The notes beneath the pieces were generated by a model. That model was not told where the DNA came from. It worked only from the letters and a program-made list of their open reading frames with translations, and made no database searches. Of a stretch of DNA of 64,000 bases, positions 2,827 to 40,423 are shown one piece after another. Source of the DNA: Botryllus schlosseri (taxonomy: Eukaryota); contig CM119372.1 in assembly GCA_051294905.1 (NCBI GenBank), positions 38,256,001-38,320,000 on the forward strand, written 5' to 3'. Every line of letters starts with the position of its first letter. Within the stretch, counting starts at the first letter, position 1. Position numbers and translations under genes: made by a program.

Positions 2827-3401
2827 ACTCCAAACGTACTATGAAATTCTAACTTTGGCCCTGGCACCGAAAAAGGCTGGGAACCACTGCTCTAGGCAAT
2901 ACCATCAGAAACTTGATAAGGAAAGAATGAACGTAGTTGATAATACCGCATCGCTTGCAAATTCCTTGTTGTCCAGCAATCTTTTATCAAACTGCTTTAA
3001 ATCCTCTTTACTGGCTACTGGCGCTGGGATAATATCTTCTGCAATTAATTGCGATTTATGTTTGTTGGTTCTTTTGCTTCTTATGCTCTGCAGTATTTCC
3101 AGCATCATCGGCTGCATTCTTGTCAAAGTCTCTTGGATTTGTTCCAAGGGATCTGGAACGTGTGCTGTAAAAAAATAACATTATTGTTGGATGATGATTC
3201 TTGATAATCAGCAGGGCAATTACATACATCAATCTCAATCACATACATACACTGCAAATACAGATTGCTAAAAAACAGTCGTCCCGCCTTCAGTTATATC
3301 ATATTGGGCTATATTTTACCTTGATATAAAACGTTACATATATATTGAACAGGAAAATAGGAACTAGTGCAGTATATGCCCGCTTTACTCGTGTGTCTAC
3401 T

Positions 3402-3529
3402 TGACGTCATTCATCATGATTCCCCATGATCCATTAATTCAATTGCCTTCTTCTATTACTTAAACCTTTTTTTCTTTTTATTCTCTCGTTTTTCCACACG
3501 AGCTAAAAAATGCTGACTCAGCATTTTTT
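3402..3529. promoter_or_regulatory. Enhancer-like terminal region: CRE (TGACGTCA, 3402-3409) and palindromic MARE/AP-1 site (TGCTGACTCAGCA, 3511-3523) flanked by A6/T6
   Basis: Exact consensus motifs in the short non-coding segment after the pol stop; function inferred. Confidence 0.4.
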
Positions 3530-3601
3530 CTAATTACGAGGTTTCAGTTTTGTCCGTTTTCCCTCATCATATCACATATGTACACTCTGCCAAAAACAGC
3601 T

Positions 3602-4550
3602 CTAAGTCTCTTGTATGACTGTGGGTGGGATAGGGCCTTCGCACAACACCACTTCTTGTACATTTGATTGCAGCAATACGAGTCCCTTATTCCTTAGATC
3701 TGCTGCTTTCAGGCAAATTACCACATTCCGCCTTTTGCTTTTCTTCGTTAGCGTTTTGCTCAAATGAATGAATCTCCTGTTCATCCGTTCAATGCCCGCG
3801 GACATTATCTGTCTTGCATTGTTTTCGGTCGTCATGTGGTACAACACCTCGTTACCTTCATATTTACAGTATGGAGGGGGCGTCCCTTTTGTATGTCCAT
3901 GGGCGGCCGCCAGACCATATTTCGAGGTTATTGCTCTGTCGCACCTTTGCATGACACTCTGTACTTCGTCCATTTCAATTTGTCCCCCAGTTTTCTTCTG
4001 GAAGACGCCACAAATATCATCCCAGGGATGGAACCCGTTCACCGAGTTGTCGCAAAGTTCATGTCGACAGTGATACATCAGCATCTGCTGTATTTTTTCC
4101 GGTCGGGGTCTTTTCTGTCGGTACGAAACGCTCTTTTTCTTGGGAATCGTCGCCCAAACATGTGGATCATCTTCTCCCGCAGCCATTTCCATCCAATAAG
4201 ATCGAGACAATCCATCTGACGTAAATACCTGCATCGTACTTAAATGAATTACCTCTTTTATTTGGAATCCTGCTAGATGATTTAGCCACCTCTGAATTAG
4301 GGGTTTTGGGCTTGGATTTTTCGCTTTGTCCGTCATTCTTTTGAGGAGCCCAAAAACCCCAGTATTATCAGTGATTATTGTAAAGGGTAAGGCTCTCAAC
4401 ATTGATTGCCATTTTTCCACCGAATCCTTTAAGGCTTTCAATTCCTTTGTACATGGATCATAAGCCTTTGCCGTTGGAGTCGCCCACTTTTGACTGTAGT
4501 AGGCAATTGGGTAAACCTTTTCGAAAGGCGGATTGCACCCTTTTCCGTCT
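3602..4550 (-). CDS. pol: Pol C-terminal part: RNase H C-half plus Tpt1/KptA-like RNA 2'-phosphotransferase domain (joined to upstream pol by a frameshift at ~4520-4550)
   Basis: Frame upstream of the called ORF reads KVYPIAYYSQKW..AYDPCTKELKALKDSVEKW..FTIITDN..RW..SDGLSR (RNase H). It is followed by YHCRH..NGF..AAHGHT..LYHMT..GIERMNRRFIHLS..VVLCEGPIPP (Tpt1-like). Confidence 0.85.
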
Positions 4551-39135: not shown

Positions 39136-39264
39136 GGTACGGATAGTGGTGGTTCTCGCCACGTCATAAACTAAATATAATCGCGCACTAGACCTAGACT
39201 ACCGTCTGTAAAAACACAAAATAATAGATGTCGTCATTTCCGTCCTGGAACCCTATAGCGGGGT

Positions 39265-40214
39265 TCACAATTGGGGTAACACAGAAGACCCGTCAAATTT
39301 GTCAAAATTATACTGTGGGTCATTGTGTATGGTGCGCAGGAGTGCCAAGAATCGATCAGTCTTCTGATGTTGACGTTTCCACAAAAACTCCCCTACGTAA
39401 TCGGTTAAAAGATGACGTGCTAAACCACGAGACCTATGTAAATGATATTTAAGCTGGCCCCAGGCCCCTTCAATTTCATTAGTACAAAAGGCTGTTCGAG
39501 GGTCCTTAAACCAACGGGAGTGGTCCACTACACCGTGTATATAACCCTTCCCCCAGCTCTCTATGCCCCTGTAGGAAGGGTAGGCATCGGTTAGAATTGT
39601 GGACCCCTCTGCCACATTTTCTACTATGAGTTTTCGGAATACTTCAGCAGTCCTGTCGGAAGTTATTTCTATGAACATTTTTCCGGTAGCTTTATCTATG
39701 CCTCCAAACCCCCAAATGGCTTTAACAGCTGGTCCTTTACCAGAGGCAGCCCGGCGCTTAGCTAAGTGCGTTTCATCAATAACCACGCAACCGCCTTCAT
39801 TTCCCAAACGTCGCTTGTTCCTGTGAAATTCGGCCGTACAAAGCTTTCGCAATTTGCCGCACCAGGTGACCGTTGAACGCTGGCTAATCTCAGCTTCATG
39901 CGCGATTTGGGTTTGCAACGCGTCATGGGCCCAAAAGTAGAATAATATCAACAATTTGGGAAGTTCTACCTTACTTCCTGCGAATATCGAGTTTTTCCGT
40001 ATAGTCGCCGTTGTATCACACGGGTTGCATCGCCACCTAAATCCATCACCGCCAGTAGTCGTAATTTCTTCATTCATTATTTTTTTACATCGTTTGCATT
40101 TCATCCTTCGCACCAACAACCCGTGATTTCTCAGAAATAGCACACAATCTCGTGTGTTTAGTAGTGCACCCGATTCGACCAAATTCAACACATTGTATGT
40201 TCTTTTCCGTGTAT
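39265..40214 (-). CDS. IS1595/ISXO2-like (Merlin) DDE transposase, copy 2 (probably with a short 5' exon at 40319-40280)
   Basis: CKRC..WRCNPC; VVIDETH, ILTDAYPSY, VDHS, TNEIEGAW, YVGEFLWK; no in-frame ATG at the N-terminus, but a splice acceptor at 40215. Confidence 0.9.
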
Positions 40215-40423
40215 CTGCGCAAGTAAATAATACGACATGTGGCGTCGATCAACTCCCCAACGTCTTTAGCGGATCAAACCCCCTTTTTCTTGGCGTTTCA
40301 TGTGTACTGACTCTCTCATATTTTAATCCCGTGTTATTCCTATGACAGGGTTATTTTTTTCACTTGTTCCCTACCAGACCTAGTGATTTTTTCACCCTCA
40401 TTTCAATGTACATGTAAAACACT

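Follow-up and report, generated by a model that had tools for sequence, protein, structure and literature searches.

Transposable elements are classed as retroelements or DNA transposons, and to our knowledge all gag–pol–env elements described so far integrate via a retroviral-type integrase on LTR ends; the target duplications of LTR retroelements measure 4–6 bp. Caulimoviruses, which are ~8 kb in length, non-enveloped, and plant-infecting, integrate only accidentally. Precedent for the integrase of a gag–RT–RNaseH element being replaced by another recombinase is provided by DIRS, Ngaro, and VIPER, in which a tyrosine recombinase is found together with split or inverted terminal repeats and no target duplication, and for which a circular DNA intermediate is thought likely. 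Among DNA transposons, classical Merlins are a few kb long and contain a single gene, and an 8-bp duplication by itself is compatible with hAT, P, and certain other superfamilies as well. The signature of Merlin/IS1595 is given in the survey cited as terminal 5′-GG, 8–9-bp duplications, and a DDE_Tnp_IS1595 domain (PMC8101967). The nearest concept to the locus examined here is Teratorn, an alloherpesvirus combined with piggyBac in teleost fish, which the cited accounts describe as giant and multicopy, with virus-like genes held within short inverted repeats and a self-encoded cut-and-paste-type DDE transposase (PMC6431247, PMC10175614). No description of a retrovirus-type gag/RT/env set with Merlin/IS1595-type ends and transposase was found in the literature searched.

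The stretch of DNA analysed (the window) comprises 64,000 nt of Botryllus schlosseri contig CM119372.1, and all coordinates are window positions. Cross-copy homology and a target duplication delimit an element of 37,141 bp with ~22 ORFs at 3360–40500 on the minus strand. A preliminary description of this DNA had placed it at 3336..40415; the element is indeed there, but both ends had to be corrected. Its gene order is ISXO2-B, EnvF, G2, a 7.6-kb ORF-less block, ~16 accessory ORFs, gag, and pol (PR–RT–RNaseH–Tpt1), with the following features in element sense.

40501–40508, no strand: target-site duplication flanking the 5′ end of the element, GGAAAATA as read on the plus strand, identical to the 8-mer at 3352–3359
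40479–40500, minus: inverted repeat at the 5′ terminus, reading GGTACTTGTGAAATAAGTACCC in element sense
39265–40104, minus: ISXO2-B, IS1595/Merlin-type DDE transposase whose N-terminal region has a CxxC...CxxC motif, the proposed integrase of the element (PF12762 at 1.3e-10)
36616–39135, minus: EnvF, predicted from its sequence to be a fusion glycoprotein; it shows a signal peptide, an RRRKR/F furin-type site, a hydrophobic fusion peptide, long helical repeats, and, at the C-terminus, a TM and a Cys-rich tail
33130–36528, minus: G2, predicted second type-I membrane glycoprotein with Ser/Thr-rich stalk and C-terminal TM; N-terminal domain paralogous to EnvF (BLASTP 7e-10)
25547–33129, minus: 7.6-kb block devoid of ORFs, none reaching 80 aa
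25031–25546, 23386–23904, 22341–23201, and 20387–20890, minus: four accessory ORFs without family, intact in two other copies
19250–20299, minus: leucine-rich-repeat protein, secreted or membrane (LRR_8 at 9e-62)
18644–19147, minus: accessory ORF shared with the permuted sister family at 59% identity
17628–18575, minus: ISXO2-A, second IS1595/Merlin-type DDE transposase, 38% identical to ISXO2-B (PF12762 at 2e-17)
14746–16428, minus: IAP with three BIR domains and a RING (BIR at 3.9e-36 and 3.2e-23; zf-C3HC4_3 at 4.5e-10)
14144–14599, 13752–14138, 11965–12423, and 11350–11850, minus: four paralogous small ORFs (paralogy 1e-25 to 3e-6)
13076–13594, minus: orphan ORF without family
12562–13017, minus: ubiquitin-conjugating E2 (UQ_con at 2.4e-47)
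9845–10111, minus: small single-pass membrane protein just 5′ of gag, from its translation
7014–9833, minus: gag, 939 aa, with helical central domain and CCHC zinc knuckle (zf-CCHC at 5e-4, slightly below the Pfam cut-off)
3602–6921 (4438–6921 plus 3602–4402), minus: pol, with aspartic protease (LADTGS...NIIG), RT (YIDD), RNase H, and C-terminal Tpt1/KptA RNA 2′-phosphotransferase (Pfam RVT_1, RT_RNaseH_2, PTS_2-RNA)
3360–3381, minus: 3′ terminal inverted repeat, ending ...GGGCATATACTGCACTAGTTCC in element sense
3352–3359, no strand: target-site duplication on the 3′ side of the element, GGAAAATA

Much of this gene set had been read from the letters alone. The genes do all lie on one strand, a fusion protein and a second glycoprotein are both predicted in EnvF and G2, and the two ISXO2-type transposases are intact. 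A non-coding block of ~7.5 kb, raised as a caveat between the env and gag–pol halves, was found at 25547–33129; the accessory set is likewise present, with its count raised from ~13 to ~16. The claim of a gag and a PR–RT–RNaseH pol without integrase was borne out by Pfam scans: neither the 22 ORFs nor 74 additional frames from the two strands yielded an rve or Integrase_H2C2 domain, and the same was true of an intact 1106-aa pol and of the 7 close homologues scanned (rve in 0/7). Below ~32% identity, an integrase domain (rve or Integrase_H2C2) was present in 9/11 relatives scanned.

The reading frame of the window pol shifts inside RNase H (between 4438 and 4402); other copies have a single open frame. 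The RT–RNaseH is of the Ty3/caulimovirus/foamy kind, with cauliflower mosaic virus RT as its best solved-structure match (8r0s, 1.6e-17). Tpt1 directly follows RNase H in all pol families found (57–100% identity, distant ones 40–45%; 137 matches), as it does in the three closest homologues from other assemblies. The R-H-R-R tetrad of Tpt1 corresponds to R953-H954, R996, and R1049 of the 1106-aa pol, R1049 being aligned with R119 of 7kw8; the R-H pair is conserved in 8 of 9 Tpt1-bearing sequences and the other two Arg residues in 9/9. From 34% to 100% identity, the PR, RT, RNase H, and Tpt1 domains retain intact catalytic motifs. Metagenome relatives L049 and L050 have a gag homologue upstream of pol. 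Modelling of the gag central domain reached a pLDDT of 49, and Foldseek against PDB returned nothing at E ≤ 0.001.

The EnvF cleavage site and fusion peptide are invariant in 6 homologues, and 54 matches to EnvF were obtained in the genome. ESM Atlas pointed EnvF to coronavirus S2 and paramyxovirus F at 0.88–0.89, which is taken as a lead only; the AlphaFold2 model from a 6-sequence alignment was unusable (mean pLDDT 33), and profile searching against PDB sequences found nothing beyond a chance coiled-coil match. ISXO2-B adjoins env in all three families examined, and G2 is placed after EnvF in three families. The C12, C3, and C13 families encode a homologue of the small membrane protein (111–122 aa) upstream of gag. 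The window IAP is split into two ORFs (15571–16428 and 14746–15561) where other copies have a single ORF of 563–564 aa. The ORF-less block of two other copies contains no ORF of at least 90 aa except for one of 112 aa in one copy. The block of the window element is 75–83% identical to the C14 and C10 copies, versus 87–92% in genes; the block keeps its position in other copies yet, as judged by sequence divergence, evolves at about the neutral rate. A tandem-repeat scan of the element returned just one 32-nt array, and scans for tRNAs and for Rfam families at gathering threshold found none.

At the 5′ terminus homology starts sharply in 10/10 aligned copies, with unrelated flanks, and at the 3′ terminus it stops at 3360 in 10/10. 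The terminal inverted repeats are imperfect and of the form GG...CC, with 16 of 22 bp complementary between the 5′ and 3′ ends: the 5′ end GGTACTTGTG... and the 3′ end, reverse-complemented to GGAACTAGTG..., are identical at 16/22 positions and both open with 5′-GG. Perfect 8-bp target duplications, all different, flank 11 of 12 copies (9/10 aligned copies and both deletion derivatives), copy C11 being the one without. Paralogous empty sites L029 and L030 each hold a single copy of the GGAAAATA 8-mer, and at the 8-kb derivative L046 public-run DNA contigs join position 84 to 8129, skipping 8044 bases, i.e. the element plus 8. As had been stated, no LTR pair was found in the element, nor any terminal direct repeat, and its ends are not TG...CA but inverted GG...CC. 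A scan of the element for terminal redundancy and a tRNA primer-binding site gave nothing convincing; six 12-nt primer-binding motifs produced scattered matches only, each with 2 mismatches. Purine tracts lie near both ends, at element position 37022–37036 and, as AAGAAAAAGGGGGG, ~210 nt from the 5′ end. The flanks of the element are packed with other repeats. The inverted-repeat pairs at 2250–2895 and 41234–43072 were considered as long termini and rejected, being unrelated high-copy repeats of the flanks.

The 5′ terminus gave 49 genome matches at ≤3 mismatches, compared with 3 for the reversed control, and has ~46 copies in the genome. A common 3′ boundary is where 37 of 42 non-self matches begin, and a common 5′ boundary is where 35 of 40 end; these shared boundaries indicate that the element is not a chance assembly. 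An env gene lies 10–46 kb upstream of pol on the same strand in 12 of the 13 best pol copies (91–100% identity), the exception being an 8-kb deletion derivative with both termini retained, and two other full copies compared are colinear with the window element across the whole 37 kb. Linkage of gag–pol with env and transposase between identical termini, on which the preliminary description had staked its reading, was thus upheld, and no other copy was found with a normal integrase, every pol family found having Tpt1 after RNase H. Deletion derivatives of 8 and 14.7 kb both retain the termini and perfect duplications.

Across all genes dN/dS ranges from 0.08 to 0.38, at dS of 0.15–0.7. The minimum is that of ISXO2-B (0.08), with values of 0.13 for ISXO2-A, 0.15 for gag, 0.19 for EnvF, 0.20 for pol, and 0.38 for G2; among the accessory genes, 0.17 was obtained for the leucine-rich-repeat protein, 0.23 for the ORF at 22341–23201, 0.10–0.20 for that at 18644–19147, and 0.09–0.13 for the ORFs of the 11350..14599 region. 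Taken as estimates of constraint, these ratios show purifying selection on all genes, and most of all on the transposase, during lineage divergence.

Both transposases match DDE_Tnp_IS1595 (PF12762) above the Pfam gathering score. The triad D110/D173/E212, with spacings of 62 and 38 residues, is invariant in 7 transposase sequences (39–74% identity), and that of ISXO2-A is invariant also. The idea that ISXO2-A is a nested, independent Merlin was rejected, since no separate GG...CC inverted repeat flanks this gene. With Merlin/IS1595 the element shares a DDE_Tnp_IS1595 domain, an intact DDE triad, the 5′-GG inverted termini, and the 8-bp duplication, but in place of a small transposase-only element it presents 37,141 bp and ~22 ORFs, including gag, RT, and env. 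Its inverted repeats of ~22 bp fall just below the 24–462 bp given for Merlin termini, and the N-terminal Cys motif of its transposases is described, in the relevant passages of the same survey, as absent from Merlin and present in IS1595 insertion sequences (PMC8101967). Because 8-bp duplications with GG termini are the Merlin/IS1595 signature and not a retroviral one, transposase-mediated insertion is well supported by these sequence features; the assignment to Merlin/IS1595 is made because of the encoded enzyme and GG termini, not duplication length alone. The earlier suggestion of integration by a captured transposase therefore gains support from the GG...CC termini, the 11/12 duplications, the invariant DDE, and the strongest purifying selection.

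Teratorn differs in joining a DNA-polymerase herpesvirus to piggyBac, whereas here a reverse-transcribing gag–pol–env set is joined to an IS1595/Merlin-type transposase with 8-bp duplications. The CCHC gag, DTG protease, YxDD RT, RT_RNaseH/RT_RNaseH_2-type RNase H, and predicted furin-cleaved fusion glycoprotein are shared with errantiviruses, Metaviridae, and retroviruses, from which the element is set apart by its lack of integrase, LTRs, and TG...CA, its pol-terminal Tpt1, and its 8-bp duplication; in the window's family, moreover, env is placed upstream of gag, unlike in Ty3/gypsy elements and retroviruses. The likeness to Caulimoviridae lies in reverse-transcribing genes without integrase and in CaMV RT as closest structure; a circular DNA form would be plausible for the element as well. 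Unlike caulimoviruses, it combines defined termini and a dedicated transposase with envelope genes and a length of 37 kb. From DIRS, Ngaro, and VIPER it differs in its DDE transposase and 8-bp duplication.

Related families vary in layout. A sister family (C12/C3) has the cyclically permuted order gag–pol–ISXO2–env–G2–terminus, with the 3′ terminus motif after G2 at six loci; the motif occurs 77 times, far above the number of pol copies seen for this family. Its 5′ end was searched for and not located, four copies breaking at L128:1087 and two other loci running past. This permutation hints at a circular or concatemeric form. A compact 14-kb family (C13) has only ISXO2, EnvF, G2, the small membrane protein, gag, and pol; cross-copy homology sets its 5′ boundary near L047:4260–4270, and inspection of its termini gave no clear inverted repeat or duplication. 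The gag–pol–env module is present in every family examined, whereas the accessory genes are not. Integrase-less gag–pol(–Tpt1) relatives were found in other assemblies and marine metagenome contigs. One metagenome contig, L051, is a distant integrase-less relative with gag–pol–env and neither an ISXO2 gene nor Tpt1, so the transposase is not universal in the wider lineage. Neither single-sequence nor alignment queries with pol, EnvF, and ISXO2 retrieved any relative from IMG/VR.

The element is likely to be a multicopy hybrid mobile element, in which a Ty3/gypsy-derived retrovirus-like gene set has lost its integrase and LTRs and is inserted as dsDNA by its own IS1595/Merlin-type transposase. 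ISXO2-B would bind the terminal repeats and perform staggered 8-bp strand transfer, with ISXO2-A as a possible second subunit or spare. From the gag, PR–RT–RNaseH, and two glycoproteins we infer an enveloped, reverse-transcribing mode of spread: a particle-forming phase would pass from cell to cell or host to host, the whole 37 kb would be copied by reverse transcription, and enveloped particles would be formed by a virus. DNA from this phase would go through a circular or head-to-tail form with the two termini abutting, since the transcript of an integrated copy cannot include both of the outermost ends, and LTRs that could restore them are absent; the permuted sister family would fit such a form. 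The pol-fused Tpt1, with its tetrad intact, probably strips 2′-phosphates from, or ADP-ribose-caps, an RNA or DNA intermediate so that RT can copy it, and the IAP, E2, and LRR proteins may be host-derived modulators. Counting against this explanation, the reverse-transcription cycle cannot be reconstructed because there is no primer-binding site, terminal redundancy, or LTR; a 7.6-kb neutrally evolving block is unlike a compact virus; we know of no RT-copied genome as large as 37 kb; copy C11 lacks a duplication; and the distant relative L051 lacks the transposase. No 3′-end-to-5′-end joint was seen among 15 of 42 joints from reads on L046. No RNA run was among those listed as carrying the element sequence, and a bulk RNA run, with 0 reads on L046, carries no weight either way. 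A single-cell RNA run on L046 was rejected as element expression, with only a 270-bp stretch at 90–95% likeness and loose ends. A sequencing run guessed to be RNA, possibly DNA, covers all 30 bins of L046.

More tentatively, the element may represent a new family-level lineage of enveloped reverse-transcribing eukaryotic viruses, with a ~37-kb LTR-less circular or concatemeric DNA/RNA cycle in which abutted inverted termini would be cut by the Merlin/IS1595 transposase and ligated genomic RNA repaired or capped by Tpt1 for RT. A giant Merlin/IS1595 DNA transposon moving as DNA only, with gag–pol–env and host-like genes as cargo that serves no part in element replication (for example, particle-mediated protein or mRNA transfer, or nothing), is considered unlikely, although the transposase alone suffices for the termini and duplications. 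The 8- and 14.7-kb derivatives resemble non-autonomous DNA transposons, and the abundance of the sister-family terminus motif relative to pol, the missing primer-binding site, LTR, and terminal redundancy, and the tolerated neutral spacer all suit such a transposon. However, gag, pol, EnvF, and G2 show dN/dS of 0.15–0.38, comparable to the 0.08–0.13 of the transposases, in lineages with saturated synonymous divergence; the enzymatic motifs of pol are intact down to 34% identity; the gag–pol–env module persists even in the compact family, from which the accessory genes are missing; and integrase-less relatives extend to other assemblies and marine contigs.

Large DNA viruses typically carry IAP, E2, LRR, and multigene small-ORF families, all of which occur here, yet an integrated herpes-, nudi-, or irido-like dsDNA virus that contains a retroelement and transposons by chance is highly improbable and close to refuted, there being, in the 22 ORFs and 74 frames, neither a DNA polymerase nor a helicase-primase, terminase, or DNA-virus capsid family, only six genes in the compact family, and no IMG/VR relatives of pol, EnvF, or ISXO2. 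A chance composite at one locus, of an integrase-defective LTR retrotransposon beside unrelated env, transposase, and host genes, might be suggested by the non-coding block between the halves and the repeat-rich flanks, but is refuted by the copy comparison, identical termini and gene order recurring across dozens of unrelated insertion sites, with a separate 8-bp duplication at each.

The hybrid element breaks both rules set out at the start, combining reverse-transcribing, envelope-bearing genes with the termini, duplication, and enzyme of cut-and-paste transposition in dozens of selectively maintained copies. If its two halves share one life cycle, the retroviral integration module would be exchangeable, a natural test case would exist for matching reverse transcripts to a foreign transposase, and the assumed size limit of RT-copied genomes would be stretched. 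Should the virus-lineage reading be true, this would be the largest RT-copied genome (~37 kb), and its mode of integration would join those by retroviral integrase, tyrosine recombinase, and target-primed endonucleases as one more route open to retroelements. The constant fusion of RT–RNaseH to Tpt1, an RNA 2′-phosphotransferase, might point to a novel step in how retroelements replicate, and in B. schlosseri the element moves host-type IAP, E2, and LRR genes about the genome.

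The 495-Mb eukaryotic assembly containing the window was searched with the element and its proteins. An ORF scan showed that nearly all long ORFs between 3.3 and 40.5 kb lie on the minus strand, and no ORF of ≥150 aa was found elsewhere in the window. In the sense of the element, the features are as follows.

39265-40104, minus strand: ISXO2-B, an ISXO2-type DDE transposase, the first gene
36616-39135, minus strand: EnvF, an 839-aa glycoprotein with a signal peptide, an RRRKR|F cleavage site, a hydrophobic fusion peptide, long helical repeats and a C-terminal anchor
33130-36528, minus strand: G2, a 1132-aa second glycoprotein whose N-terminal domain is a paralogue of EnvF
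After G2, minus strand: a 7.6-kb stretch without ORFs
After the ORF-less block, minus strand: ~16 accessory ORFs (an LRR protein, ISXO2-A, an IAP, a ubiquitin E2, a small-protein family and several orphans)
Between the accessory ORFs and gag, minus strand: a small membrane protein
After the small membrane protein, minus strand: gag, with a CCHC knuckle
Last gene, minus strand: pol

ISXO2-A, the second ISXO2 transposase, shares 38% identity with ISXO2-B; the IAP comprises three BIR domains and a RING, and the small-protein family has four members. The window copy has a frame change inside the RNase H part of pol, and its IAP gene is in two pieces; other copies have pol as one ORF of 1106-1151 aa, encoding protease, RT, RNase H and a Tpt1/KptA RNA 2'-phosphotransferase domain, and the IAP as one ORF of 563-564 aa. 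The best solved-structure matches of RT-RNase H were cauliflower mosaic virus RT (8r0s, 1.6e-17), foamy virus Pol (4e-14) and Ty3 (5e-12). Structure modelling confirmed neither a fusion fold for EnvF nor a capsid fold for gag. Pfam searches of the 22 ORFs, of intact pol and of 74 additional frames from both strands detected no integrase domain; no LTR pair or direct repeat shared by the two ends was found in the element, nor was a primer-binding site found by motif scan.

When the element edges were used as DNA queries, the 3' boundary was common to 37 of 42 non-self matches and the 5' boundary to 35 of 40. Alignment of ten copies gave GGTACTTGTGAAATAAGTGCCC as the 5' terminus and GGGCATATACTGCACTAGTTCC as the 3' terminus, which match each other at 16 of 22 positions as an imperfect inverted repeat; the flanks outside them are unrelated among these copies. 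Perfect 8-bp direct target duplications were found at nine of the ten and at two internally deleted derivatives (11 of 12). The window element (3360-40500) is bordered on each side by GGAAAATA, and two paralogues of the flanking repeat at other genomic loci show the empty site with a single 8-mer. For the 8-kb derivative, a matching empty form was seen in DNA contigs of a public run. The 5' terminus had 49 genome matches at ≤3 mismatches, compared with 3 for a reversed control, and copies with ends paired by hand from the edge-search listings are mostly 38-40 kb long (range 8-52 kb).

The insertions directly show inverted GG...CC termini and 8-bp duplications. Retroviral integrases, by contrast, produce 4-6 bp duplications and TG...CA ends. 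The combination seen here is the signature that PMC8101967 describes for Merlin elements and IS1595 insertion sequences. ISXO2-B and ISXO2-A belong to the same transposase family as this signature, and in both the D-D-E triad is invariant and the N-terminal Cys motif is present; ISXO2-B is the copy found beside env in all families examined. Because the signature matches Merlin/IS1595 and the element encodes that transposase family, the predicted insertion into chromosomes by ISXO2-B is the best-supported step of the proposed life cycle.

The insertion target is one of the high-copy repeats of the left flank, which is a mosaic of such repeats (24-3002; units ~24-892 and 1413-2535, dozens of copies each at 88-94% identity). 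A ~2-kb dispersed repeat adjoins the element at 41235-43217 (at least 40 copies, 85-94% identity; partial copy at 51195-52177) and has short inverted stretches in common with 2250-2895 of the left flank. A near-perfect hairpin at 47537-48011 (two 158-nt arms, 99% complementary, 159-nt spacing) resembles a MITE or foldback element. A 42-nt tandem repeat forms two arrays (61214-62117 and 2701-2803), 58 kb apart on opposite sides of the element, with the unit in one inverted relative to the other.

For 12 of the 13 best pol copies, EnvF was found on the same strand 10-46 kb upstream, the 13th being an 8,036-bp derivative with only gag-pol and both termini. Two full copies, fetched as 10-kb pieces, carry the ORF set of the window copy and are colinear with it across all 37 kb, the ORF-less block included. 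Identity between copies is 75-83% in this block compared with 87-92% in genes; judged from the dS of most genes (0.15-0.35), its divergence is about that expected of unconstrained sequence. The neutral 7.6-kb spacer and the 37-kb length tell against the proposed life cycle, both being unlike those of known reverse-transcribing viruses.

dN/dS between the window copy and the C14 copy in the same genome
ISXO2-B: 0.08
ISXO2-A: 0.13
gag: 0.15
EnvF: 0.19
pol: 0.20
G2: 0.38
Accessory genes: 0.09-0.23

For pol and EnvF, dN/dS against more distant families is still 0.13-0.14. These low ratios indicate that the copies diverged as functioning lineages rather than as decaying pseudogenes, and constraint on the transposase genes is no weaker than on the retroviral genes. 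The strength of selection on gag, pol and env tells against the main rival explanation, a giant Merlin transposon with purely DNA-based mobility and the retroviral module as cargo; this reading is considered unlikely, although 8-kb and 14.7-kb deletion derivatives and an excess of solitary termini speak for it.

Other families in the genome differ in size and gene order. The compact family C13 contains ISXO2, EnvF, G2, the small membrane protein, gag and pol in ~14 kb, with no accessory region. C12, C3 and others, with pol 79-82% identical, have an altered order that starts with an accessory ORF, the membrane protein, gag and pol, with ISXO2, EnvF and G2 beginning ~130-200 bp past pol. Their 3' terminus is TGGTGTATAGTGCACTAGTTCC, the last 13 bases of which resemble the 3' terminus of the window element; the motif was found at the expected distance past env at six loci and has 77 matches genome-wide compared with 0 for the control. 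The 5' end of this family was looked for among its loci and not located. The ends of the element fall between pol and ISXO2 in the window family and between G2 and a long ORF-poor stretch in the C12/C3 family, which makes the two families cyclic permutations of a single gene circle.

Of the 77 TGGTGTATAGTGCACTAGTTCC matches (e.g. L041:196-217), just six adjoin recognised env genes, and many of the 77 could represent short, trans-mobilised non-autonomous derivatives. The ORF-poor 5' region of the C12/C3 family contains a nested 1.3-kb high-copy repeat (L128:3699-5110, G000:C12; >30 copies, 81-92%), which recurs at the equivalent position in two or more other copies. At 76-82% identity, both termini also recur on a further group of 10-16-kb elements (e.g. 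G000:C3:18167935-18181085, C6:26159292-26172456 and C2:31767402-31781274), whose 3' end contains just a fragment of the Tpt1 region. In a family with 88%-identical pol, a 5'-terminus motif match lies on the reverse strand ~4 kb downstream of pol (G000:C5:18412463-18412484, 2 mismatches), so the two ends of this family may be a near-perfect inverted repeat.

Genome searches with the Tpt1-bearing pol C-terminus gave 137 matches at 28-100% identity (144 of 146 candidates scored). Tpt1 directly follows RNase H in every family with mapped pol, including the most divergent lineage (40-45%), which also has a 34%-identical env on the same strand, 12-34 kb upstream. A search of 5.8 billion proteins gave just three matches to pol at 36-39% identity, all with RT, RNase H and Tpt1 and without integrase; the next matches (21-25%) are Ty3/gypsy polyproteins, almost all with an integrase domain. 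A HMMER scan of 1.84 billion representatives gave 118 pol matches at E ≤ 1e-30, 18 of which were covered by a Pfam scan: rve was found in none of the 7 closest and Tpt1 in 4 of them, and 9 of 11 relatives at 25-32% identity had an integrase domain (rve or Integrase_H2C2). Three further relatives were found on metagenome contigs, and scans of IMG/VR with pol, EnvF and ISXO2 found none. The marine metagenome relatives, together with the BIR-RING IAP and LRR genes, suggest that the eukaryotic host is probably an invertebrate animal. L049 and L050 are short gag-pol relatives (47-50% identity), the former with Tpt1 and the latter stopping inside RNase H. The 13.9-kb contig L051 encodes gag, a 731-aa PR-RT-RNaseH and a 1337-aa fusion glycoprotein (cleavage site RTRRQ|FFAALAIILGF) that weakly resembles EnvF around this site (hhalign: probability 66%, E 5.7e-5); its pol has neither integrase nor Tpt1, and no ISXO2 or LTR was found on the contig. 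L051 also has a perfect 27-nt hairpin upstream of gag (1713-1816) and a BED-type zinc-finger ORF in its flank.

We infer a particle-forming, reverse-transcribing, transmissible phase served by gag, PR-RT-RNaseH-Tpt1 and both glycoproteins, because the genes are conserved, their catalytic motifs are intact and the set persists in the most compact family. As a transcript of an integrated copy could not contain the two extreme termini together, and the element lacks LTRs that would regenerate them, the two halves could cooperate only through a circular or head-to-tail template, with the termini internal and adjacent; a template of this kind would permit the cyclic permutation seen between families. 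Against this reading, the motif scan gave no primer-binding site, and no circle junction was found among the 15 listed of 42 joints when a public run was compared with the 8-kb derivative (L046). A bulk RNA run gave no reads on this derivative. Single-cell RNA reads (90-95% alike, many with loose ends) gave only an ambiguous 270-bp pile at L046:7125-7398, a segment without counterpart in the window copy. The Arg-His-Arg-Arg tetrad of Tpt1 is retained in pol. The enzyme is described as removing internal RNA 2'-phosphates left by tRNA-ligase-type joining and as also able to ADP-ribosylate 5'-phosphate ends; our guess is that it might clear or cap a ligated or cleaved replication intermediate.

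Teratorn, a herpesvirus riding a piggyBac transposase, is the nearest concept. The nearest mechanistic precedent for integrase replacement in a retroelement is the tyrosine-recombinase DIRS group. No description of such an element was found in the openly accessible full-text literature searched. A targeted look-up in a 2026 eLife paper on envelope-carrying retrotransposons gave no occurrence of ISXO2, Merlin, Tpt1 or transposase, and look-ups in a giant-transposon review and a Teratorn review gave no account of such an element. The element is regarded as a new kind, in which reverse transcriptase and transposase would be functionally coupled.
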